Shown here: positions 5,485-43,290 of the stretch, piece after piece | How the letters are laid out: every line of letters starts with the position of its first letter | Numbering within the stretch: the first letter of the stretch is position 1 | Origin: Octopus vulgaris | Lineage: Eukaryota | Length of the DNA stretch: 64,000 nucleotides | Direction of reading: 5' to 3' | Assembly: GCA_951406725.2 (NCBI GenBank) | Contig: OX597823.1 | Coordinates: 77,128,001 to 77,192,000 of the forward strand | Position numbers and translations under genes: made by a program | Notes under the pieces: model-generated | Told to the model about the DNA's origin: nothing | Seen by the model: only the letters and a program-made list of their open reading frames with translations | Database searches by the model: none

Positions 5485-6410
5485 GAGCTGGACAAAATAT
5501 ACAAGTGGGCTGAAAAGAATAGCATGCAGTTCAATGCTGAAAAGTTTCAAGCTCTATGCTATCAGCACGCAAAACTAAATGCAATACCCAATAAATACAC
5601 TGGACCTGGAGGGACTGCAATCCCAGAGGCACAATCAGTGTGAGACCTATTTACATGAGTGATGATGCAACCTTTCATGTGCATGTTGCTAAATTGGCAA
5701 TGAAATGTAGGCGGCTGACCGGATGGATTCTTGAACCTTCAGAACAAGAGACTAGGAAACCATGATGGTCCTCTGGAGGACACTTGTCCTAAGCCACTTT
5801 GACTATTGCTCTCAGCTATGGTCACCATCCAGTGTCAAGTTAATCACAGAACTTGAGGCGATCCAACGAGCTACATGAAGAAGATAGCCTCTGTGCAGCA
5901 TATAAGCTATTGGGAAAGACTCAAGAGATTGAGACTCTATTCCTTAGAGCGTAGGCAAGAAAGATATGCCATAATATACATCTGGAAGATCCTAGAAGGA
6001 CTTGTCCCAAACTTTGGCATCGAGAGTTACACAAATGCCAGAAATGGGTGCCACTGCATAGTGCCAAGGACTCCAAATTTGCCATCAAGATGTAGGACAA
6101 GATACTGTGATAGCCTGGGCTTCCAAGGCCCACAGCTCTTCAATATCCTCCCGAAGAACCTAAGAGACCTGCATGGGGTGGATGCAGATGTCTTTAAAAT
6201 GAAACTGGATCTCTTCTTGTCAGGTATCCCAGATGAACCAACTTCATGGCTGGAGGTGCAGATGAGGGCTGCTGCATCGAACTCTCTCATGCACCAAATG
6301 GCAATTGCTAAAAAGCATTCATGAAGTAAAATCACGTAGCAAAACCAAATGGCGGTGCCCCAGCATGGCCACGGCTTGTGAGCTGAAACTAGATATATAA
6401 AAAAAGTAAA
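5485..6410 (+). mobile_element. 5'-truncated CR1/L2-group LINE (RT C-terminus plus 3' UTR), frameshifted
   Basis: ELDKIYKWAEKNSMQFNAEKFQ; DYCSQLWSP; YWERLKRLRLYSLERRQERY; FKMKLDLFLSGIPDEP (ORF 5875-6324). These are typical CR1-group ORF2 C-terminal motifs. Confidence 0.85.
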
Positions 6411-6663: not shown

Positions 6664-6780
6664 TGCTTACAGCACTTAGGTTTCCCCAGTGGTCACCCAT
6701 CTAAGTGCTAACTAGGCTTGATGTTGCATAACTTCGGTGATTGGAAAAGAACCAATGCTTTCAACATGATATGGCCGTAA
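6664..6780 (-). pseudogene. 5S rRNA pseudogene (diverged, isolated copy)
   Basis: Reverse complement TTACGGCCATATCATGTTGAAAGC...TCACCGAAGTTATGCAAC...GTTAGCACTTAGATGGGTGACC...GTGCTGTAAGC follows the metazoan 5S consensus over ~117 nt with many substitutions. Confidence 0.85.
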
Positions 6781-7830
<1,050 letters not shown>

Positions 7831-8139: not shown

Positions 8140-10789
8140 AATGGTGCAAAATCCCCTCGTGACCCAAGGTAACGTGGTGGTGGAACAATGTGGTTGAGAG
8201 GGCTATTATAGAAAAGAAACAGGCTTAGAAGGACTGGAGGAACAGAGGTAGCAGGGAATTGTATCAGACTGCCGGAAGAGAAGCTTGGAGACAGGTTTAT
8301 TTAGCCAGAAGGGAAGTAGATAAGAAAAAAATTTGTCAATGTTCTGCACCGTGAGGACCAAAGACTTGAAGTATTTCGTGTTGCAAGAGAGAGTTTGAGA
8401 GAGAATCGTGACATCGTAGGAGAGAAATGTGTCCGCATGGATTACAGGACAGTTCACTTGCACTAAATGAGGATGCAAAGAGAGAGGTTTGGAGACACCA
8501 CTATGAAAGGTTGCTCAATAAAGAGAATGAATGGGAGAAAAAGAGTCTGCTGAATGTCGACCAAATAGAGGGACCAGCTATCCGAATTGACAGTACCTTG
8601 GTAGATAAAGCAATTAAGGGTATGAAGACAGGGAAAGCCCCAGGCCCATCAGGAATCACTGTAGAGATGCTAAAAATATCTGGCAGTGTCAGCTATAGCC
8701 TAGTTACCCATATAGTTAACCAGGTGATACACAAACAAGTCATACCAAATGACTGGTGTACCAGCACCATAGTCAACTGCTACAAAAGTAAAGGTGACAC
8801 TCTAGATACAAATAATTACAGAGGTATCAAGTTGTTGGATCAAGTAATGAAGGTCACGAAGAGGGCCATAGCCCAACTAATTAGAGAGAGAGTCAGTTTA
8901 GATGAGATGCAGTTTGGGTTCATGCCAGGGAAAAGCACCACTGATGCTATATTTCAGGTAAGACAGCTGCAGGAGAAATACCTAGCCAAATATAAACCTC
9001 TGTACCTGGCTTTCGTTGACATGGAGAAAACCTTTGACAGGGTCTCCTGATCCCTTATCTGGTGGTCAATGGGGAAACTAAGGAAAAGTGAATGGTTAGT
9101 GAGAGCTGTGGAGCCATGTACAGGGATGCCATCAGTATGGTGAGGGTTGGTAACGAGTACACTGAAGAATTCAAGGTAGAGGTTGGGGTCCACCAAGGTT
9201 CAGTCCTCAGCCCCCTCCTATTTATCATAGTCCTCCAGGCAATAACAGAGGAATTCAAGACAGGGTGCCTCTGGGAGCTCCTCTATGCTGATGACCTTGC
9301 TCTAATTGCTGAGTCACTATCAGAACTAGAGGAGAAGTTTCTGGTGTGGAAGCAAGGATTAGAATCAAAGGACCTTAGAGTCAACCTAGCTAAAACCAAA
9401 GTCATAATAAGTAGGAAGGCAGACAAACCACAAACCTTTTCAGGTAGAAGCTCTGCTCAATCAGTAGAAAAGGTGTAGGTAGAAACTCTATAAGATGTAC
9501 CCAGTGTAAGCTATGGACACATAAGAGGTGCAGCAATTTCAAAGGAATGCTAATTAGGAAGATAGTTTTTGTATGTGGCAGATGCTCAGGAGCAATAAAC
9601 ACTGAAAATGTGGAGAGAAAAACTAGAAGTAGTTGATAGCTTCCATTACCTAGGCGACCAAGTCAGTAGCTGGGGTGGGTGCACTGAAAGAGTAATTGCT
9701 AGAATAAGAATAGCCTGTGCAAAGTTCAGAGAACTCTTACCTCTACTGGTGACAAAGGCTTCTCACTCAGAGTAAAAGGCAGACTGTATGAAGCATGTGT
9801 ACAAACAGCCATGCTACATGGCAGTGAAACATGGGCTGTGACTGCTGAGGACATGCGTAAGCTTGCAAGGACTGAAGCCAGTATGCTCCGATGGATCTGT
9901 AATGTCAGTGTTCATACTCGACAGAGTGTAAGTACCTTGAGAGAAAAGTTGGATCTAAGAAGCATCAGATGTGGCACAAGAGAGATGACTGCCCTGGTAT
10001 GGTCATGTGGTAAGAATGGATGAGGACAGCTGTGTGAAAAGTGCCACACCCTAGTGATTGAGGGAACCTGTGGAAGAGGTAGACCCAGGAAGACCTGGGA
10101 TAAAGGTGGTGAAGCACTACCTTCAAACATTAGGCCTTACCGAGCCAATGCCTGGTGACTGAGACCTTTGGATATATGCTGCACTTGAGAAGACCCAGCA
10201 AGCAAGTGAGACCATAACCTGTGGCCTATGCCAGGAGTATAACTAGCTTACTTATGCATACCGTCCCTTCATTGGACATTAAACTCTGCTTGCAAGACCT
10301 ATTGAGGCAAGTGAAATCGAAATCAAATTCGATGACAGCACTGCATGACTAGCATCCGTGCTAATGGATCACTAAGAGCACCATCTGAGTGTGATCATTG
10401 CCAGAGCAGCTGACTGGCTTCCATGCTGGTGGCACATAAAAAGCAACATTCAAACATGATTGTTACCAGAATCACCTCACTGGCACTTGTGCTGGTCGCA
10501 CATGAAAAAATGTTCGAGCGAGATCGTTGCCAGTGCTGCTGGACTGGTTCCTGTGCAGGTGACACATAAAAAACACCATTTTCGAGCATGGCTGTTGCCA
10601 GTACCACCTGAGTGGCCCTAGTGCCAGTGGCATTTAAAAGCACCCACTACACTCTCGGAGTAGTTGGCATTAGGAAGGGCATCCAGCTGTAGAAACTCTA
10701 CCAGATCAGATTGGAGCCTGGTGCAGCCATCTGGTTTGCCAGTCCTTAGTCAAATCGTCCAACCCATGCCAGCATGGAAAATGTATGTT

Positions 10790-11632: not shown

Positions 11633-13200
11633 TATATATAGATATATATATATATAAATTGACAGAATGCGATAAAGAATCCAAGACTGTGAATAGTTTA
11701 CAGAACATTAATAAAGAGGTCTTACAGCTGTTTCCATGATACTTTATATATCCCTTTATTAGATAACTATGAATTTGTGTGTGTATGTTTGTGTCTGTGT
11801 TTGTCCCCACACCATTACTTGACAACCAATGTTGGTGTGTTTACATCCCCATTACTTACAGATTTGGTAAAAGAGATAGATAGAATAAGTACAAGCCTAA
11901 AAAATTGAAAAGACGGTGCTCCAGTATGACCGCAGTCAAATGGCTGAAACAAGTAAAAGCATAAAAGAATATGGTGAAAGGATGTTACACTTCTATACTT
12001 TAAATTGGAAAGGTAATTCATAGACTTCCTTTGTAACATATTGGAATAGAGTTCAGTGATGTAGCTAATATTCAAAGTACTTGACATAAAGGCAAAATTT
12101 TAGAAAACAGATTTTTGTGATTAATAATGAAATAAAAAAAGCTATTGATAAAAGAATATTTGAACTTCTAGCTCATTGAGTTTCTGAGATATCTGATTGG
12201 ATACACAATCAATCAATTAAACAAACAAAATCAAAATGAGGAAACCTTTTATTTAATTTTAATTTTGTGGTTAGTGATGTTGGTTTTTAGAAGAGAGTAT
12301 GGATGCATAGTATAAAAATAAGCTTGGTTCCTAGAGCTATCACAGGAAGATTTATAAAAGTACAGTGCCAAATCAACATACATTCACACAGAAATGAAGT
12401 GGAAGATCTAAGGACACTTGATACAAATGTAAAGCCAAACAGACTGAAGAATTTCATAGGAGGAATATTTTCAACAACCAAATAAAATTTATGTTATAAC
12501 AAATACGAGAGATCTAACATTTCAGGAAGCCTCCTTCAACAGAGAGAAAGAGATATCAAGTGGTTTTAAAGGATGGATCACTTGGGGTGAGAGAGAGGGA
12601 GAGTGAAAGAGATTCTAAGTTTTAATGGATGGAGGCTGTAATGGTCAGGGAGAGGAGGAAATATAAGGAACATCAACAAGTTTCAAAACTATCGAGAGAT
12701 GGAAGAGAGATAAAGACATAGAAATGAGAGAGGGATACCTAGATTCAGACCCACATACATATGTATGGATGTAGCTATAAATGTGGTGTACACAGTTATA
12801 TATTATGTATAAAAACTATACTAAACAAAACAAGAGCACTCAGAGAGCACAAACCTCTGCCAAAGTAACACCAGAATCCTCTCAATGAATAGCCAGAGAT
12901 GATTTTTAAAATGAGAATATCTGAAACAAACTCGACTGCTCTCACAAATGAAAGTACTAAAAATGAACCCAGCCGTTCTCAAAAATTAAAAAAACCGGAA
13001 AAATAATCCAGAAGATAATTTTCCTGTGTCTATGTTTTCTTTGGTTGTATAATGTCAATTTAACGTGACAGTAGGGGATTACACCACCGCTGTTTAGCCC
13101 TAGGAAGCATCGACGCTTCCTGATGGCTTTGACACATTTATTCCTGTGTCCTTATATATTTACGAAGGGGAGACAAACACCCCCAGCAGCCAGGCCTGCA

Positions 13201-13247
13201 TCTAGAGAAACACATGTTTCAGAATCTTTGTCCATCATCGGTCTAGA
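13201..13247 (-). ncRNA. Degenerate hammerhead ribozyme (unit 1)
   Basis: tctaga-CCGATGA-tggacaaagattct-GAAAC-atgtgt-TTC-tctaga. Core U4 is changed to C and helix III is mismatched. Confidence 0.65.
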
Positions 13248-13273
13248 GTAGCAGAAGCCCGCCAGCCGCAGAT

Positions 13274-14935
13274 GAATCTTTATTATAGGCACAATGGCCC
13301 GAATGAAGAGGGGACATAACAATACAGGACATGGGGTACATATAACAAAAAAAAAAAGGATGGTATGACAATGAAATACCTATAATTAATTAAATGGAAT
13401 GGCTTACGAGCTACCCCCAAAGCTCGCAGTTTCATTTACAATTACAATTGTGCTGTCCGGGGCGTTCATCCATAATATAATCGAGTAACTCCTCCTGTTC
13501 TATAACACCTGGCAAACTGTCATATCGAATGTATTGCATTACGCGTACAGCTATATTTGAATACACATTTATTAATTTCATTACTGTCTCTCTTTCTACA
13601 ATTGCCGCCTTTATTTGGTCATCGAATATCTTCAGGCTCAGTTTTACTCTAGTTAGATTTTTCATATTCACTAATTTCTTCTCAATTTCTTTGTCCTTTT
13701 TGTACAACATTATAGCTTTGAGATTTCTTCCTTTTGGCCTCCGTCCTTCCTTACATATTTTCAGTTGTTCTTCCATTTTTCTTTCCCATTCTTTCTCTTC
13801 CTCCCACATTGAAACTTCACTCACTTTTGTTTCTGTATCTCTCTCTTTGTGCGTTTGATCCCCTATCTCGTCGGTAGACTTCTTTTTGGCTTTTTCCTTT
13901 TTTTGTGCTTTCGGTGGTGATTCCACCTGCGTTCTCTTTCTATCCTCTTTTTCTTCTGTTCTTTCCTTTTCTTTCTCCTTCACCAACTCGTCACCACTTT
14001 CCACATTATCTGTAGTCACGATTTCTTCTTCCGCTTGCAATTCCACATTCGCCTTTTGTAACTCCTCTGTCAAAGCCTCCAGTGTTATCGTCTTCTCTTG
14101 TACTTCTCTCAGCGGACACATATCCTTCATGTGACCTCTAATTTTACATTTGTAACACACTGGGGGTCTCCCCTTCACCACGACTCTGAGACATGTCTCG
14201 TCGGGGAAGACCAACTCCTCTGGGATGTTATACAGGTCTGGCATGGTTATGTGAACCAAAGCCTGCACCGCATAACCCCACCAATTTATTTCTTTCGACT
14301 TTTCTACCTTCAGTATGTGAACGCTCTCTTTGCAGTTGAATATTATTGCCGCTACAATTCTTTCCGTGTCCAGTTCCGATGAAATTTTACTAATCCGTAT
14401 TCTCACTGCTCTTTTTCCACAATAGCTAGGTAGTAACACCCATTTTTCGGATTTCAATACTGTCGTGGCGTTTCTCTTCGCTTCGTCTTTGTTTTCAAAA
14501 CGAATGTCTACTGTCGCATATTTTCTACCTCTATTGTAGAAGGTAGTTTTTCCTTTAATTTCCTGTAGACACTTCTCAATTTCTTCCACCTCTGCTACTT
14601 CTATTCTCTTCGAAACCACACTCCACGTTCTGTACGTTATAATTCTCTTCTCAGCTTCTTTCACTTCGTCTTTAGGTGGTGTGACCCTCAGACAATCACC
14701 TTCCTTCTTGATGCTGTCGTAGTACTTCCTCAAACTCTCCTTCTCGATAACTATTTCTTCCACCTGTAGTTCGCTCGCAACCAGGCCTCTGCCTGTTGCT
14801 ACCACATAAGTTTGAGCTTGCATACCCAACAAAAACTCCAACAATTCACCACGCCGTAACAACTTCCAACAACAAAATCCAACTCACAACCGCAATACAC
14901 AATAACCATAATACAAAATAACCAACACAAACACT
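13274..14935 (-). mobile_element. Full-length ORF1-only non-LTR element (Tx1/L1-related, HAL1-like), 1662 bp
   Basis: 17-bp TSD GCCCGCCAGCCGCA(G/A)AT at 13257-13273 and 14936-14952; 5' end AGTGTTTG; single ORF; 3' end ...GTGCCTATAATAAAGATTC; no RT or endonuclease. Confidence 0.8.
13432..14823 (-). CDS. Gag/ORF1p-like nucleic-acid-binding protein with CCHC zinc knuckle (463 aa from the first ATG)
   Basis: Uninterrupted ORF with C-x2-C-x4-H-x4-C (CYKCKIRGHMKDMC), preceded by an RRM-like region and followed by a K/E-rich tail. This is the layout of Tx1/L1 ORF1. Confidence 0.8.
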   Translation of the reverse strand: MQAQTYVVATGRGLVASELQVEEIVIEKESLRKYYDSIKKEGDCLRVTPPKDEVKEAEKRIITYRTWSVVSKRIEVAEVEEIEKCLQEIKGKTTFYNRGRKYATVDIRFENKDEAKRNATTVLKSEKWVLLPSYCGKRAVRIRISKISSELDTERIVAAIIFNCKESVHILKVEKSKEINWWGYAVQALVHITMPDLYNIPEELVFPDETCLRVVVKGRPPVCYKCKIRGHMKDMCPLREVQEKTITLEALTEELQKANVELQAEEEIVTTDNVESGDELVKEKEKERTEEKEDRKRTQVESPPKAQKKEKAKKKSTDEIGDQTHKERDTETKVSEVSMWEEEKEWERKMEEQLKICKEGRRPKGRNLKAIMLYKKDKEIEKKLVNMKNLTRVKLSLKIFDDQIKAAIVERETVMKLINVYSNIAVRVMQYIRYDSLPGVIEQEELLDYIMDERPGQHNCNCK

Positions 14936-15236
14936 GCCCGCCAGCCGCAAATATCTGTCCCGACTTCGTAAATATATATATCTAATTTTCAGTGAAGTTT
15001 ATTCACTGATTACCAAAATCAGAAATATTAAATTTCTAAATATCTCATAGAGATATGTACGGTGATGGGGCGATAGAATGGTTGTATACTGTCAATTTAA
15101 CGTGACAGTAGGGGATTAAACCACCGCTGTTTACCCCTAGGAAGCATCGATGCTTCCTGATGGCTTTGACACATTTATTCCTGCGTCCTTATATATTTAC
15201 GAAGGGGAGACAAACACCCCAGCAGCCAGGCCTGCA

Positions 15237-15283
15237 TCTAGAGACACACATGTTTCAGGATCTTTGTCCATCATCAGTCTAGA
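15237..15283 (-). ncRNA. Type I hammerhead ribozyme with intact catalytic core (unit 2)
   Basis: TCTAGA-CTGATGA-tGGA caaaga TCCt-GAAACA-tgtg-TGTC-TCTAGA: 6-bp helix I, short helix II, 3-bp helix III, GUC cleavage triplet (15245-15243). Confidence 0.8.
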
Positions 15284-16089
15284 GTAGCAGAAGCTCACCA
15301 GCTGCAGATATCTGTCCCAACTTCGTAAATATATAAATCTAATTTTCAGTGAAGTTTATTCACTGATTACCAAAATCAGAAATATTAAATTTCTAAATAT
15401 CTCATAGAGATATGTACGGTGGTGGGGCGTACATATCTCTATGAGCACCCACTAAACCGTATTAGTCATAAGGAAGAAGAGAAATCTAACATTTCACAGA
15501 GAATCCTTCATCACAAAAAAATAATAATAGTAAATGCCCTGATGCAGTACCAGGCAGTGGCTCTCATGGCTTCTGATCTTAACTGATTGGAAGTGTTATC
15601 ATGTACATTGTTTTGTCTAGGTAGAAAAGATGGGCTACAGCAAATATTCTGCTCAATACCACAGATTTGCTTGTCAGTTGTTTGACCTTAACCAGTTGAC
15701 CATGTCCATTGTGGCTGATGATATTTGCATCTCTGATCCCGAGCAGAAGTAGTTGGGAGCATCATAGCCATGTGTTGAGAGGCATTCTTTGGGGTTTGAA
15801 TAATTCACCTCTGGAAACATGGGTGTTTCATTTAACATACTTAAACAACCCTTATTCAGGGACCTTTTGAGCAGGATGGGTTACTCAACCAGAAAAAAAT
15901 TCTAACTGGGCCCCACCTGCAAGGTCATGTGCTGTTTATCTTGATATGAGATCACCATGTCATGCATATATGTTTGTGATGCATGTACCTAGTGTAGCCT
16001 TATCAGATAGATAGTCATGATGGGTATACTGGGCTTTGTATATTTTACCCCAGTGGCACTTCAATGGCATGCACTGCTCTCTCACTCAA

Positions 16090-26562: not shown

Positions 26563-28150
26563 CTAGCATTATGACCCATCGTTGCCGGGTCATAGTGCTA
26601 GTGCATGTATATATGTGTATATATATGTGTACATATTACATGTACGTCTGTATATATACATCTACACATAAAATACAAAATACAAAGTTATATCTTGATA
26701 TCACTAGTGATAACAATACTCAAAATATATAACAGACTGAAATTGTAGGCCCATCTCTTGCAATTTCGATCAATTGTATCTTTTCCTCCCTAAGTGTGGC
26801 TACAATCCAGGCTACCTCTACTTCTGGGGGGACATTTCAAATTTTTATCTGGGACGTAGTACGTCCCAGATACAAAGGTAAAAATAAAATATTTCCACTT
26901 TGCAAGGTTCGAGTTGAATACTCCCTTGCACGCTCCGTTGACTCAAACCTTGCTTCTATGGTGACGACGAATTTACCGCCTCTGGTTAGATACTTGATAT
27001 CTTTCATAGTCGCACCAAGACACTTTTCGATGGTGCTTTCCTCCAGGTGTTAAAATCTTTTTTTCTCTCTACATTGTATACTTTATAGACAATAGTCTTT
27101 TCTTTAATTTAATTTTTTATTTCGTTTGGTGGTGTCGATGATCAATCCAAAATAGGTTTGTATTTCTTCCATTTTAATTTCAATGAGTTTGCGCCCGCCG
27201 ACGGCTGCAGCGAAATTCATTTTTAGACTTTCTTCTATTGAAGGCATTCTAACAAAAATGCTTCTGTATAAACGGTGAAAATATTGTCAATTTCTCCAAA
27301 CAGGGACACAATTCAATTTTTAAACAATAACCAAAACTCTTTCTCCCAAAGGGGGAGTGTTACAGTTTACAACTATTTAACAAATGCAAAACAATAACAT
27401 TTCCCTTACGAGGAACCAACAAACATGATAACAATAGTTAAACAGTAATAATAATAACAACAACCCTTACAGTGAATCAAAAAGCAGTACGTAGTTGAAG
27501 CTATAGTCCTTTATTTATAAGAAATAAACCAACAGCAGTACTCAGTAGAAGCGACTGTTCGACAAAACAGACATTACACACAGCCAAACTTCATATAGAT
27601 ACTTAATGCTAGCTAATTAGCAGATAATCTAATGTAAAAGCCGTGGTAAATGGTATGTGCACAGCTCCATCTGGACTATTCCATTTCTGCACTTAAATTT
27701 TATTTTTTATTTATTCCCATTCATGTGAAACCACTTATTCAAGTTCAAGTCATTGATGCAATTTTATACCAATTGCTATTTTTACTTTTGTTATGTTACG
27801 ATTATATTATACTTTAGTTTGATTTTAATTATTATTTACGACATATAATTCAATTGTTATTATTATCTCTAATTTCTATTGTTAAAGTGAAAGTATCTGA
27901 CATAAAATAGAGAATAGTTTTTGTCTCACATTTAACACATAATACTGAAATAGTGGAGAAGATATGATATTGCTATGGGCGCCCCCTAGGCAAGAAGTTG
28001 AACATTTTTTTTGCCCATGAAACTACATGGACCTTAAGTAAGGCATGTGTAAATTTTGAATGAAATTGGTTGAGTACTTCTCAAGTTTTAGGGAAACACA
28101 CAGACAGATAGACAGACAAACACACATTCTCAGTTTTATATATATAAAGA
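26563..28150 (-). mobile_element. Non-autonomous Helitron-like element carrying an ORF1 fragment
   Basis: Minus strand starts A|TCTTTATATATATAAAA (28150) and ends with hairpin TATGACCC...GGGTCATA plus CTAG|T (26563). The 5' part is repeated at 28670-28792. Confidence 0.6.
26740..27172 (-). pseudogene. Decayed ORF1 fragment homologous to the 13432-14823 protein
   Basis: EKTIVYKVYNVERK..HLEESTIEKCLGATMKDIKYLTRGGKF..TIEARFESTERAREYSTRTLQSGNILFLPLYLGRTTSQIKI*NVPPEVEVAWIVA aligns by eye with EKRIITYRTWSV..EVEEIEKCLQEIKGKTTFYNRGRKYATVDIRFENKDEAK..LLPSYCGKRAVRIRISKISSELDTERIVA. Confidence 0.75.
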
Positions 28151-34280: not shown

Positions 34281-34653
34281 TAACTATTAATATCCAGTAA
34301 CGCTGCTGTAATCTCCTTTAGAGAGACTTAGTAATTTTAATATTTCTATTATTGAAAACAAGTGGATGTATTCCACTGTAACTAGGTAAATAAAATCTTC
34401 GAACAGACGGTCAGTAGCGACACCTGCGGGTCTGACTACGCTGCATTGATAAAGGGCAACAACCCTGAAACATGTCTGCAGATGTCTGACTAGCAAGGTG
34501 AAACGGCTGACCTCCCTGTTCGAAGGTTGTAATGGACGCAGGTTCGTGTGTCATATAGCTAGCTAGAGGCGGTGGCCTCTTGGAGCTAATCAGCGACAGC
34601 TTTAGTCTTATATTTATAGATTGCCATATTAGTATGGCGATAACTATTAATAT
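34281..34653 (+). repeat. 360-bp retrozyme-like monomer with 13-nt terminal redundancy; diverged relative of the 357-bp unit
   Basis: TAACTATTAATAT at 34281 and 34641; colinear similarity to the reverse complement of 15079-15429; HHR at 34441-34481 CTGCA-tTGATaA-AGGG caacaa CCCT-GAAAC-at-GTC-TGCAG. Confidence 0.75.
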
Positions 34654-35718: not shown

Positions 35719-36808
35719 TTCGGTTGGCAACTAAGTTCCGATCGTTTTATTTAATTTTGTTATTTATTGCATTTTTAAATTTGGGAATTTTTTTTCTTTC
35801 TTTGAGAATTCTATTTTTGAATCATTTTGGAATCTATTTTGTGTTTTTTTTCTACTTAACTTCAGTTAATTTTTGTTTATTTTTAGATCATTAAAATGGC
35901 ATGTCAAGTTAAGAAAAACAAGCATTTTTGACACCTCCTTCTTTTTGCTTTTAATCAAGGTTCTAACGCTGCAAAAGCTGCTCGTGACATTTGTGCTGTG
36001 TATGGAGAGGGTGCTATAGAGAAGCATCTTTACTCGATGAGAAAGGTTCAGAAGTATGGAGCTTGGGTTCTGCATGCTTTAAGTAACACCAACAAAAATC
36101 AACGAGCCACAATCTCCACTGGTTTGCTTGCTTGTCACCGCTCAACTCATGGACACAAGCAACAATTTCTTTACTGAATTGTTACTGGCGATGAAAAATG
36201 GTGACTGTACATCAATATGAAGCAGCGTAAGGAATGGCTTAGCCCCAGTAAGCAAGAGACACCGCGCATCAAACAAGATCTTCATCCGTGTAAAACGATG
36301 TTGTGCATATGGTGAGACTGGGAAGGGATTATCCATTACGAATTGCTTGAATGGAACCAGACAGTCAATGTTCAAGAGATGAAATGACTGAACACGGCTA
36401 TTGAAGAGAAACGACCTAATCAGCAGCATGGAGTTCTTCTGCTGCACAACAACGCCTGCCCTCATATTGCCAATATGACCAAGGAAGCCATTCAAGCACA
36501 TGGCTGGGAAGTGCTGCCACACCCACCGTACTCTCTTGATTTGGTACTAACAGATTTCCACCTCTTTCGATCTCTGTCAAATGCCATGTGCAGAGTTTTG
36601 TTCAACATTGAGAGCAAAATTGAGAGCTTGTTTGGATCAATTTTTCGACTCGAAATTAGGTGATTTCTACCAACAAGGTATTGAAAATCTTGTTGAACAT
36701 TGGGAAGAAGTCGTAAACAACAAGGGTGAATACATTATTGATTAATTAGTTGTTATTTTTTATTAAATTTAAATTTTAAAAAACGCGGGAACATAGTTGC
36801 CAACACTA
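35719..36808 (+). mobile_element. Mariner (Tc1/mariner) transposon with both TIRs and a decayed transposase
   Basis: TA-flanked TIRs ..GTTGGCAACTAAGTTCC / GGAACATAGTTGCCAAC..; motifs GAWVLHAL, IVTGDEKW, LLHNNACPH, HPPYSLDL..DFHLFRSL, with stops and an internal deletion. Confidence 0.92.
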
Positions 36809-38639
36809 TACATGCAATTCATCAGTATAGGGCTATAGTGTTCTCCAATGTTTCAAAGCAATAAGGATTAAATAATCATGTTAGAATTTTTCAGAACAAA
36901 TTAAGAGTGAATAAATATGTTGTTACTTGAATTTTCACTGTTCAGCAGGTATCATCATCATCATCGTTTAGCGTCCGCTTTCCATGCTAGCATGGGTTGG
37001 ACAGTTCAACTGGGGTCTGGGAAGCCAGAAGGCTGCACCAGGCCCAGTTTGATCTGGCAATGTTTCTACGGCTGGATGCCCTTCATAACGCCAACCACTC
37101 CGTGAGTGTAGAGGGTGCTTTTTACGTGCCAGACGAGTCTGGCAAATGGCCACGATCAGATGGTGCTTTTTATGTGCCACTGGCACTGGGGCCAGGTGAG
37201 GCTGGCAACGGCCACGAACAGATGGTGCTTTTTACGTGCCACCGGCACGACTACGAATGGATGGTGCTTTTTACGTGCCACCGGCTTTCTAGTTTAGCAG
37301 ACATCAGCAAATAGTTTCTCTGCTGATTCCTATAAACTTGAGCTGGTGCTTTTGTTTGACCCATCTTGGTAACTTTGGCTGATTAGACACACAATGAGGT
37401 TGAAACACTAAAGTGTCTCAAAACTCCCTTTTAACTCCCTATCAAACCAGTGAATCACATGTGTATGAACGCACATCATCAGAAGGGAGAAACAAAGAGA
37501 TGCTCTTTGATGGGGAAAAGCTACAGCAAATAGAAATCAACTTGGAATCTGCTAAGACATATTAAGAATAAATAGATATATTATTATTATTGTAGAGTAT
37601 ATTTTTCATTTTGAATTGAGTGTTTGTCTTGGAATTCAGTTTTCACACCACTATGGTGGGAAATATTACATAATAGGTGGAAGCCATTGCAACTAGATGT
37701 TGTAATATGTTTATATAAATATATGTTTATTATATTTATAAATACACCACAACAGTGATTTAAAACAATCCTTGCCTGAAGATACCAGTTGTTGGAAAAT
37801 CTAGTCACGAGATAAATATTCAATTTAAAGAAACCACATTCATATGCACACTTCTATATGCATATATATATATGCATGTGTATATGTGTGTATTTTATAC
37901 AAATATACAAAGTTTCTCTTGATGATTGTGGTAATAACGTGGATAGAAACTATATTGAATAATGACAAATTTCCTTATACTAACCACATTAGGATCAAGC
38001 ATATACTCTTTTACTCTTTTACTTGTTTCAGTCATTTGACAGCAGCCATGCTGGAGCACCACCTTTAGTCGAGCAAATCGACCCCAGAACTTATTCTTTC
38101 TAAGGCCAGTACTTATTCTATCGGTCTCATTTGCCGAACTGCTAGGTGACGGGGACATAAACACACCAGCATTGGTTGTCAAGCAATGCTAGGGGGACAA
38201 ACATAGACACACAAACATACACACAAATATATACATATGTACAATGGGCTTCTTTGAGATTCTGTCTACCAAATCCACTCACAAGGCTATATAGTAGAAG
38301 AGACTTGCTCAAGGTGCAAAGCAGTGGGACTGAACCCGAAACCATGTAGTTGGTAAGCAAGCTACTTACCTTACCACACAGCCACTCCTATGCCTATATT
38401 TAATTTTTTTTTTGTCACACACTTAATCGTCTTCAGCCACAAACACAGATATAGAATAGAAAAAGAACACACAGACACACAAATATACATTCTCTCTCTC
38501 TCTCTCTCACGCACACACACACATTTTATGGGTTTGTGTGAGTTATCATGTCTTGTTCAAATGGCTGCATTAGAAAGTGATGAGTTAGTAATTATTTCAA
38601 GTATTTATTTACACACATATATGTGCAACCACATTTATT

Positions 38640-40860: not shown

Positions 40861-43290
40861 TTATTCTTTTATTAGCCACAAGCACTTACAAACAATAACA
40901 TTAAAAGACATGCAACAATGTAAAAATCAAAAAGCTGGACAATACAATGGGTTTTACAGTGTGTAAACAATATATATATAGCAATAACAAATTAAACAGA
41001 TTAAAACTTCCAATAGGGCAGGCATTTTAAGGTTCCCATGGAAAAACCCACAAAACCCATGGGTGCCTGATCAACAGAGCAAGAGCCCTTCTTTTATTTC
41101 TCAGGATTGGTTCTTTCACACTGGCCATCCTTCCAACATTCACCCACCTTTCAACAAACTTGCTACAAGGCAACACTTTCCTTTCCACCCTCAGCTTCCT
41201 TCTCAAGTGAAATTTGAAAAAGTTGATGAGGGCTTAGCCAAAGAGGAAAGTGTCTGTCTTTAGCCTTTTCAAACAGGCACACCATACTACCCCTTTTTGC
41301 TACAGCCACTAGACAAATTAAAAATTGCCTGTCCTCTCCTGGCAAAAAGAGGACGGCGGAGCAATCTTCACAATGGATTCAGCTGATAGCCAGATCTGTC
41401 CACCATGTGACAGCAGGTGTTCGATATAAATCCACAGGTCAGCAATACTCAGGCACTGAACTAGGGTGTGCAGAACAGTATCACCGTTCTGGGTGCACCT
41501 GGAGCAGGCCCAGCTAAAGGCAATTTATCTCGAACAGGCAATGCCCCTCAGTAGTACTGCCAGGCAAGGGATCTCTGGAAGTTAATCATAGGCTCAGGCC
41601 TGAAAGTTCTCTGAAACAGATCGGTTAGTTGATCTTCATCAACACCCAGAGTTTTCCTGAGAACATTGTCGCACTTTTTCTCCACTAGCCGTCTATAGAA
41701 TGCTAGGGTGGAACTTCTACCGACTGCATTGCCCACCTGGTGGAGGGCTGTGAACACTTAATGGTGCTCGAGGTGCCAAGCACCTCTCCTTGGTTTATGC
41801 CTAATCCAGGTTTACAGTTGAGTCAAGGAGATGAGCTGTGGAAAAGTGTGCCTGACAAACGGTGAAAACACCTGCTCACTGTCAAGGAAACGCAGGAGAT
41901 GCTGCAACCTGTGCTCATGTCTGTGCATCAGTAACCATGGCATGCCCAGCCCTCCATTCAGTGGCTGTTGACAGAAGATGGAGTGTCTAACCAGTGGAAT
42001 GTACCCTTTACACAGAAAGCAGAAGAGTAAACACACCAGCTTGGTCAACCAGTAATAGATGACGGATGCGATATACACATTCACCACCTCTGCTCAACCT
42101 TTCAGGGATAGCTTCCTCTCAGCCAATTTCTGGGTAAGATACACTACTCTGCTCATCACTTCATCCCTCTTTTTCTCCATCTGGAGGTTTGGTCCAAACC
42201 AGACTCTGAGCAACTTAATCAGACCATCTTTCCAGTACCCTATGACACTGTTGGACAGCATGGACTTGCCTCTCCAGGTGCTGAGTAGCAAGCCTGCTGA
42301 CTTTTCTGTATTAATTTTTGCTCCTGTCACCACCACTTCATATTCTTGTAGTGTGTTGCCAATGAGCTCTATATGCCTGTGAATCAACACTATGATGGTG
42401 ACATTATCAGCATAAACAGATACATTTCTCCCACATCCTAGATCATGTGGGACACCCCTCAAAGACTCTGACTTCTGCATTAATGGCCCAAAGAGTCAAT
42501 ATATACAGAAAGGAGAAGAGAGGGCATCGTTGATGGACCAAACACAAGATGTTGAATGGCTCCAATAGGTGACCATTCACCCGAACAACCAAGTAGATGC
42601 TGTTGTACAAAGCAGCGATCCAACTGCAGAAAACTGGACCAAAACTGGCTGCCTTGAGGACAGCTGCCAAGTATTGATGGTTGACCCTATCAAAGGCTTT
42701 AGTTTGATCTAAATTGAACAGAGCTCCACCCATGCCAGCTTTGTTACCCACATTCCCTATGTTGTAGTACATAAGATGGAGGTTGTTGTGAATAGTCCTG
42801 GTTGGGATGGTGCATGTCATTGCCTCACCAACCAGCTTGTCCACAACAAGTGCCAATGTCTTAGCTAATATCTTGGCTGAAATCTTCAACTCAGCATTGA
42901 GCAGAGTGATGGGCCAGAAATTTTCTATGATGTTTGTTTGGGTCCTTTCTCAGCAGTGCCACTACCCCTTGACAGACAAAAGTGGGAATATCTCCCATTC
43001 TGCAACCAGTTGCAGTAGACGTCTGCTAAGAGGCCCCAAAACAAGCCTGGCATTGAAGTAAAAGTCTCGTAGGGCAGACCATTCAAACCTGGCAATCTTA
43101 CCTCTCATGCAACTCTTCATCGCTTCCTGTATTTCTGTGGCTGTTATTGGCTTTTTGCAGCACTCCGCCTCACTTGTTGAGAGTCGTGGCAGGCTGCCCA
43201 GGTACACATTGGAGTCTGCCTTTTCATCCATCCTACCATTCATCCTGATCAGTCAAGCAAAGTACTTCTGGAAGGCGCACACATCTGTTT
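40861..43290 (-). mobile_element. 5'-truncated Tx1/L1-clade LINE ORF2 (decayed RT) plus 3' UTR
   Basis: KISAKILAK, LDQTKAFDRVNHQYL, VSVYADNVT, GAKINTEKS and GGLGMP motifs across frames; 3' end ...CTTGTGGCTAATAAAAGAATAA. Confidence 0.9.

Follow-up and report, generated by a model that had tools for sequence, protein, structure and literature searches.

A 357-bp hammerhead unit of Octopus vulgaris and the coding insert that splits its second copy

Two minus-strand hammerhead ribozyme motifs on contig OX597823.1 of Octopus vulgaris (NCBI GenBank assembly GCA_951406725.2) are separated by an open reading frame (ORF) of 463 codons. The stretch that contains them, 64,000 nucleotides from position 77,128,001 to 77,192,000 of the forward strand, is referred to here as the window. 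The question raised by this locus is whether the ORF belongs to the ribozyme-bearing repeat, as part of a coding retrozyme, or entered it as a separate element. An earlier note, made from the letters alone, had described two head-to-tail units with a 357-bp period and a hammerhead in each; that description had to be revised, as the hammerheads lie 2,036 bp apart with a 1,662-bp coding insert between them. What the window itself shows is described below: the layout, the hammerhead motifs, a 17-bp duplication, an intact ORF and a predicted fold that recurs in a distant monomer. We consider it probable that the locus is a decayed dimer of a retrozyme or Penelope pseudo-long terminal repeat (pLTR), the second unit of which was later hit by a separate ORF1-only retroelement resembling half of a long interspersed element (LINE).

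Layout of the locus and its hammerheads

Read along the minus strand, the locus begins with an 18-bp foldback (15445-15428), continues through an uninterrupted unit (unit 1; segments B', m and A', 15429-15073) and ends in a second unit composed of B, m, the 1,662-bp insert, m and A (15072-13042). Self-comparison resolved two repeat pairs rather than a single tandem: 13042-13273 against 15079-15309 (232 bp, 94.8% identity, offset 2,037 bp), which has the hammerhead inside it, and 14941-15072 against 15298-15429 (132 bp, 96.2% identity, offset 357 bp). The stretch that recurs at the 357-bp offset is only 137 bp long and does not include the hammerhead-bearing 232 bp, and no 357-bp array was reported in the window by Tandem Repeats Finder. 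The features of the repeat units, in minus-strand order, are as follows.

15428..15445, no strand assigned: 18-bp foldback at the 5' end of the element, an exact reverse complement of 15401-15418
15073..15429, minus strand: unit of retrozyme type, 357 bp without interruption (B', m and A'); GC content 40.6%, longest ORF from an ATG 45 aa
15237..15283, minus strand: type I hammerhead with a complete core (CUGAUGA, GAAA, GUC), predicted cut after 15243
14936..15072, minus strand: 5' part of the interrupted second unit (segment B and the first 17-bp copy)
14936..14952, minus strand: upstream copy of the 17-bp direct repeat m, a likely target-site duplication, 16/17 identical to the downstream copy
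13257..13273, minus strand: downstream copy of the 17-bp direct repeat m
13042..13273, minus strand: 3' part of the interrupted second unit (segment A), 94.8% identical to 15079-15309
13201..13247, minus strand: damaged hammerhead (U4C, and GUC to UUC, which breaks helix III), cut-equivalent site after 13207

Segment m is present as a single copy in unit 1, at the empty junction, and once on each side of the insert. Matches of at least 13 of 17 positions were found at just these three sites of the window, and the downstream flank copy agrees with that of unit 1 at 14 of 17 positions. The short inverted duplication that had been noticed at the end of the array was recovered as the exact 18-bp foldback at 15428-15445. 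Outside the element, a 57-bp direct repeat with 74% identity (12493-12549 and 15465-15521) lies on either side; it is unexplained and is perhaps an older repeat.

Both hammerheads of the earlier note were borne out, one with a complete core at 15283-15237 and the other with core mutations at 13247-13201. The helices of the intact motif consist of 6 bp (helix I), 3 bp over a U.U mismatch (helix II) and 3 bp with a 4-nt loop (helix III). A descriptor scan of both strands of the window returned it as the sole type I match with a perfect core (core from 15277, minus strand), and the same scan gave no match in any of 20 shuffled windows. The damaged motif, when forced into the hammerhead fold, reached +5.1 kcal/mol. 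The Rfam check that the note had proposed gave weak support: HH9 matched the intact hammerhead (20.5 bits, E 0.08) below its gathering score of 52, and a scan of the whole window contained no hammerhead among 126 matches at E up to 1. A further hammerhead-like match on the plus strand at 37379 carried a change at G8, had no homology in its flanks and was taken as chance. Twenty-three metagenome loci with a degenerate hammerhead pattern (L001-L023), in whose contigs the minimal core often lay within inverted repeats and no long coding ORF was present, were dropped, their likeness being confined to the core (best blastn E 0.007 over 33 bp). This degenerate pattern was found in none of the prokaryote genomes and in none of the viral contigs searched.

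A diverged relative and the predicted unit fold

A related copy of the unit, first reached through a weak blastn match, is located approximately 19 kb from unit 1.

34294..34640, plus strand: monomer, diverged and unbroken, from a related family; its minimal hammerhead (type I, 34441-34481) has a U3-A8 core pair, and a 13-bp direct repeat flanks the unit

The monomer is ∼345 bp long, with 42.9% GC and a longest ATG ORF of 47 aa, and the 13-bp repeat that flanks it (34281-34293 and 34641-34653) has no other occurrence in the window. Identity to unit 1 is 54% (185 of 341 aligned positions), and the global alignment score of 220 compares with 88 ± 11 for 300 shuffles and with a maximum of 154 for 289 other segments of the window. 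A covariance model built from the two cores recovered only the intact, monomer and split-unit copies in the window. Outside it, a search of sequencing runs listed 24, of which 20 contain part of the 2,037-bp unit (9 studies, 4 organism labels, best share 0.37) and none of those listed is an RNA run; these matches were not counted as evidence. The array of unit 1 and the monomer start and end at matching unit positions, far from the cut site.

The unit had been described as full of local hairpins, and it is indeed strongly self-paired in prediction (z -8.25 for unit 1, -6.38 for the monomer; 0 of 100 shuffles equally stable). The predicted folds of both units have a matching order of hairpins and a long stem with the hammerhead at its tip. 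In a consensus fold of the two sequences, 21 of 74 pairs were changed on both sides, compared with 10.7 ± 3.4 (maximum 19) in 100 column shuffles, and the consensus energy, which is likewise based on two sequences only, was -58.5 compared with -20.9 ± 4.3 for 100 column-shuffled alignments. The core of the monomer has U3 and A8 where that of unit 1 has C3 and G8, an exchange described as a natural and active covariation (PMC3088659), and its helix III is short and palindromic. Taken together, the conserved predicted fold with its both-sided pair changes and the C3-G8/U3-A8 swap in the core show that selection acted on the unit's minus-strand RNA as a ribozyme. The unbroken junction occurs twice, and because it is found both in unit 1 and in a monomer as distant as this one, the comparison also shows it to be ancestral.

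The insert and its protein family

The insertion point in the second unit falls in the long, hammerhead-bearing stem, within one of its two arms. The insert, its ORF and a relative of that ORF elsewhere in the window are the following.

13274..14935, minus strand: insert of 1,662 bp, comprising a 112-nt GT-rich leader, the ORF and a 158-nt trailer with AATAAA (13284-13279)
13432..14823, minus strand: intact, type I ORF1-like ORF of 463 codons, with two RRM-fold domains, a CCHC zinc knuckle, a charged linker and a C-terminal domain conserved in the family
26753..27205, minus strand: broken, 3'-truncated relative of the insert ORF (profile E 1.4e-33), with its own leader from ∼27558, starting at CAGT

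The leader of the insert also begins at CAGT, which we take to be an initiator-like start, and at the other end 5 nt separate AATAAA from the 17-bp duplication. The stop-free frame extends over 483 aa, 463 of them from the first ATG at 14823. A spliced intron was rejected as an explanation of the insert, whose junctions are without GT/AG ends. In simulations of neutral decay at the between-unit rate, the ORF stayed open in 3.9% of 1,000 runs, or in 35% without indels; because it is intact to its conserved C-terminus while neutral decay seldom leaves it open, the comparison suggests that the insert is younger than the divergence of the two units. No hammerhead unit was detected beside the relative at 26753-27205.

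The family of this ORF was visible to an index-free search, in which 440 of the representatives clustered at 50% identity matched the N-terminal 274 residues (E ≤ 0.001), unlike word-index protein searches, which gave no homologue. All 10 of the relatives looked up, taken from the best 14, belong to Octopus bimaculoides, O. sinensis or O. vulgaris, and a locus search found no relative of the N-terminal part in prokaryote genomes. The last 112 residues match seven stored relatives, several of them at their own C-termini, and for this reason the ORF is regarded as complete. Pfam recognized zf-CCHC alone (21.4 bits against a cut-off of 20.8). A structure predicted from a 40-sequence alignment (predicted local distance difference test, pLDDT, 91.3) placed tandem-RRM proteins on top in Foldseek (best E 1.4e-4); residues 50-138 aligned to the RRM fold with a Z of 9.3 (root-mean-square deviation 2.5, 79 residues aligned), and the second domain did so with a Z of 7.7. 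Matches in the Atlas were to CCHC clusters (0.93) and to ZCCHC3 RNA-binding domains (0.90), and an assignment of the C-terminal domain to Rep_trans was discarded (Atlas score <0.9, low recognition). Based on these models, the ORF is predicted to encode an RNA-binding protein like the type I ORF1 of LINEs, with RRM folds and a CCHC knuckle, a combination that defines the type I ORF1 layout and, in published work, agrees with Tx1 elements of animals (PMC5203782). Upstream of a broken LINE reverse transcriptase (RT) at 42097-42949 on the minus strand, no ORF1 of the insert family was detected.

Origin of the locus and its place among known systems

According to the reading we favour, a head-to-tail dimer of the 357-bp hammerhead unit was likely copied into this site by a Penelope-like RT. 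Transcripts of intact arrays of the family would be cut at each hammerhead into ∼357-nt monomers, the monomers would be circularized by a host ligase, and Penelope-like proteins may reinsert the circles, leaving partial tandems with inverted 5' ends. Published retrozyme transcripts are tandem non-coding repeats that self-cleave to monomers and are circularized by transfer RNA ligase (PMC7229834), and animal retrozymes have been reported as derived from Penelope pLTRs (bioRxiv 10.64898/2026.07.22.740005). For one Penelope-like element, RT initiation was internal and hammerhead cleavage was dispensable for insertion in vitro (PMC11167929); the matching unit ends of both subfamilies, far from the cut site, would fit such internal initiation. 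A full-length ORF1 transcript would subsequently have been inserted into the second unit by the target-primed reverse transcription of a LINE, with the 17-bp duplication left behind, and the likeliest donor would be of L1/Tx1 type. Support for a later insertion comes from the 17-bp repeat, which bounds the insert and is single at the empty junction, and support for a separate origin from the relative at 26753-27205, which has its own leader and no hammerhead unit. ORF1-only derivatives are known (HAL1; PMC5753468), as are Tx1 elements that prefer other transposons or multicopy repeats as targets (PMC4494074), and both L1-Tx1 and Penelope families have been active recently in O. vulgaris (PMC13282606). 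With one intact hammerhead, the upstream one, and a damaged site 2,036 nt further on, the locus would now be unable to release a monomer or circle of 357 nt.

Several observations weigh against this reading. HAL1 elements have a poly(A) tail, and no poly(A) is present between AATAAA and the duplication. Domains of an RT, an endonuclease or a recombinase were absent from all 32 relatives that were scanned out of 150 listed, no link of the ORF family to an L1/Tx1 ORF2 was found among them, and no longer, ORF2-linked forms turned up in searches that were themselves weak. There is no target-site duplication around the whole element (longest shared word 6 bp). The segments that flank the insert are predicted to pair across it as they do in the empty unit (-52.6 compared with -51.6 kcal/mol), and a composite of unit and insert could therefore keep its fold. 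Lastly, the intact hammerhead, taken in isolation, prefers a non-hammerhead fold at minimum energy (z -0.12), the canonical hammerhead reaching -4.0 kcal/mol; metazoan hammerheads with weak helices may need dimers, and misfolding of the isolated motif is thus expected (PMC4209133).

It is possible, though in our judgment doubtful, that ribozyme unit and ORF form one family and spread together. A 2,037-bp unit would then be transcribed and trimmed by its flanking hammerheads to a 2,036-nt RNA, perhaps circular, with the coding sequence of its own packaging protein, and would spread either as a composite moved by a Penelope RT or as a half-LINE that homes to retrozyme arrays and uses their ribozymes. 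In one version, which we regard as unlikely, the ORF was captured a single time by a retrozyme lineage that has since moved as a unit of 2,037 bp, bounded by hammerheads and encoding its own RNA-binding (capsid- or chaperone-like) protein; a master array of short and long units would then have given rise to this locus through one Penelope-type insertion. Such a composite would agree with the start and end of the array at the same unit positions as in the distant monomer, with the inverted 5' end, as in Penelope-like insertions (PMC8557442), and with an intact ORF whose flanks pair across the insert and which is without poly(A); moreover, Penelope-like elements can carry host genes in trans (PMC8557442), and one Chlamys type combines a zinc-knuckle ORF with a 3' hammerhead. 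It is opposed by the clean 17-bp duplication at the insert, by a downstream hammerhead that is damaged although the ORF is intact, and by the other ORF relative of the window, which has no hammerhead unit.

Rather improbable is a target-specific half-LINE, a Tx1-type family that homes to this retrozyme site and is transcribed and trimmed as a passenger by the host hammerheads, 308 nt upstream and 67 nt downstream. The frequent targeting of multicopy repeats and other transposons by Tx1 elements (PMC4494074), the lack of poly(A) and the short distances to the cut sites would all suit it; however, a single insertion cannot show preference, the relative at 26753-27205 lies outside any retrozyme, and the Tx1 origin is itself putative. 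The reverse order of events, which starts from an ORF-bearing, non-autonomous Penelope-like element and derives the 357-bp unit from it through recombination of its 17-bp repeats, appears very improbable. These repeats would permit the deletion, and animal retrozymes are reported to stem from Penelope pLTRs (bioRxiv 10.64898/2026.07.22.740005), but the 54%-identical monomer shares both the unbroken junction and the long stem with compensatory changes, so that an ancient or repeated deletion would be needed. We give least credence, and very little, to a non-autonomous Ngaro/PAT-type element with plus-strand A1-internal-B1-A2-B2 split direct repeats and a gag-like ORF. Its repeats of 232 bp (A) and 137 bp (B) resemble those of Xenopus DIRS-53 (236 and 152 bp; bioRxiv 10.1101/2021.08.05.455354), and an outer duplication is absent, yet the ORF and hammerheads are on the opposite strand, elements of this type have A1 5' and B1-A2-B2 3' on the coding strand, an order that here runs the other way with respect to the ORF, there is no RT or tyrosine recombinase, and the repeat halves form one unbroken unit elsewhere.

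If the decayed dimer with a later ORF1-only insertion is correct, it would extend to octopus a class already recorded in mussels, corals and amphibians, with a retrozyme-type family of which the window contains at least two diverged subfamilies. A second addition would be an octopus family of ORF1-like proteins, large in size and including an ORF1-only copy; both are useful for repeat annotation and unsurprising. Should the ORF instead travel with the unit, the locus would represent a protein-coding animal retrozyme, intermediate between non-coding retrozymes and ribozyme-bearing coding RNA circles, and would make it possible to test directly how proteins are acquired by ribozyme RNA circles. 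No description of octopus retrozymes was found in the literature searched, which left out most subscription journals and Repbase/Dfam. The words hammerhead, ribozyme and retrozyme are absent from the available text and supplement of the 2026 O. vulgaris repeat paper (PMC13282606), Octopus is not mentioned in the main text of PMC7229834, and the invertebrates named in the text of the retrozyme preprint are three insects and one coral (bioRxiv 10.64898/2026.07.22.740005).

The Penelope RT fragment that the earlier note had placed in the window received no support from profile searches. Among the 176 of 178 filtered ORFs (at least 62 aa) scanned with Pfam, RVT_1 was found in three, at two places (8412-9475 and 42446-42949), and GIY-YIG in none. 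The short plus-strand frame at ∼1380-1545, in which a motif resembles by eye the C-terminal end of a Penelope RT, is without database support, with no relevant Pfam, PDB, phage or locus match. As 6.83% of the O. vulgaris genome consists of Penelope-like elements (PMC13282606), this frame is irrelevant to the mechanism. Other features of the window include a broken LINE RT (RVT_1) followed by a PHD-like finger at 8412-9633 (plus strand; RTE-like by eye), the broken LINE RT at 42097-42949 (minus strand; RVT_1 at 42446-42949, L1/Tx1-like by eye), and a 155-aa frame at 5857-6324 (plus strand) that by eye resembles the C-terminus of a CR1/L2-type ORF2 and has no Pfam match. In addition, a helix-turn-helix fragment of a mariner (Mos1-type) transposase lies at 35932-36174 (plus strand; E 8.6e-10), and a 5S ribosomal RNA-like sequence at 6664-6782 (minus strand; 68.7 bits), which may be a pseudogene or else form the head of a short interspersed element derived from 5S.

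The locus shares with the metazoan non-LTR retrozymes (Cervera and de la Peña 2020, PMC7229834) the size class of its 357-bp unit, a GC content below 45%, a type I hammerhead and self-pairing, and the closest example is that of Mytilus galloprovincialis, with repeats of 350–390 bp (PMC7229834). The unit thus lies within the ∼150–450 bp, the GC content of less than 45–50% and the predicted self-pairing of such retrozymes. The axolotl HHR_Amex2 has a U.U mismatch under helix II, as does the locus hammerhead, and the long flanking direct repeat of metazoan retrozymes has a counterpart in the 13-bp repeat of the monomer at 34294-34640. Unlike those retrozymes, the locus has two units only, one hammerhead being damaged and one unit being split by a coding insert. 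Assignment to a retrozyme family, as proposed in the earlier note, was thus upheld for size, GC, hammerhead, fold and the compensatory changes in the relative, and failed for the clean non-coding tandem, as an ORF lies between the hammerheads: the empty units have longest ATG ORFs of 45 and 47 aa, and the second unit contains one of 463 codons, which we read as a later insert. Measured against the published definition of an active copy (bioRxiv 10.64898/2026.07.22.740005), the locus has one complete and one damaged hammerhead at a distance of 2,036 nt, and it is not classed as an active retrozyme array.

With Penelope pLTRs and their non-autonomous derivatives (PMC4209133, PMC8557442, bioRxiv 10.64898/2026.07.22.740005), the locus has in common a hammerhead in a terminal repeat, a partial tandem and an inverted 5' end, and the short palindromic helix III of pLTRs is also found in the monomer. 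The inverted piece is here an 18-bp foldback and not a truncated copy, and where an autonomous Penelope-like element would have an ORF with RT and GIY-YIG domains, the only long ORF combines zf-CCHC with the RRM fold. The insert itself resembles HAL1 and the type I ORF1 of L1/Tx1 elements (PMC5753468, PMC5203782, PMC4494074) in being ORF1-only, in its leader, trailer and AATAAA, in the 17-bp duplication, a likely target-site duplication, and in the pairing of RRM and CCHC; HAL1 has been described from mammals (PMC5753468), and the insert, which is without poly(A), is HAL1-like only. Finally, Chlamys-2_cBra (PMC8557442), like the octopus locus, combines a zinc-knuckle ORF with a 3' hammerhead; it differs in being an autonomous Penelope-like element of algae that has both RT and endonuclease, whereas the ORF of the locus stands alone.

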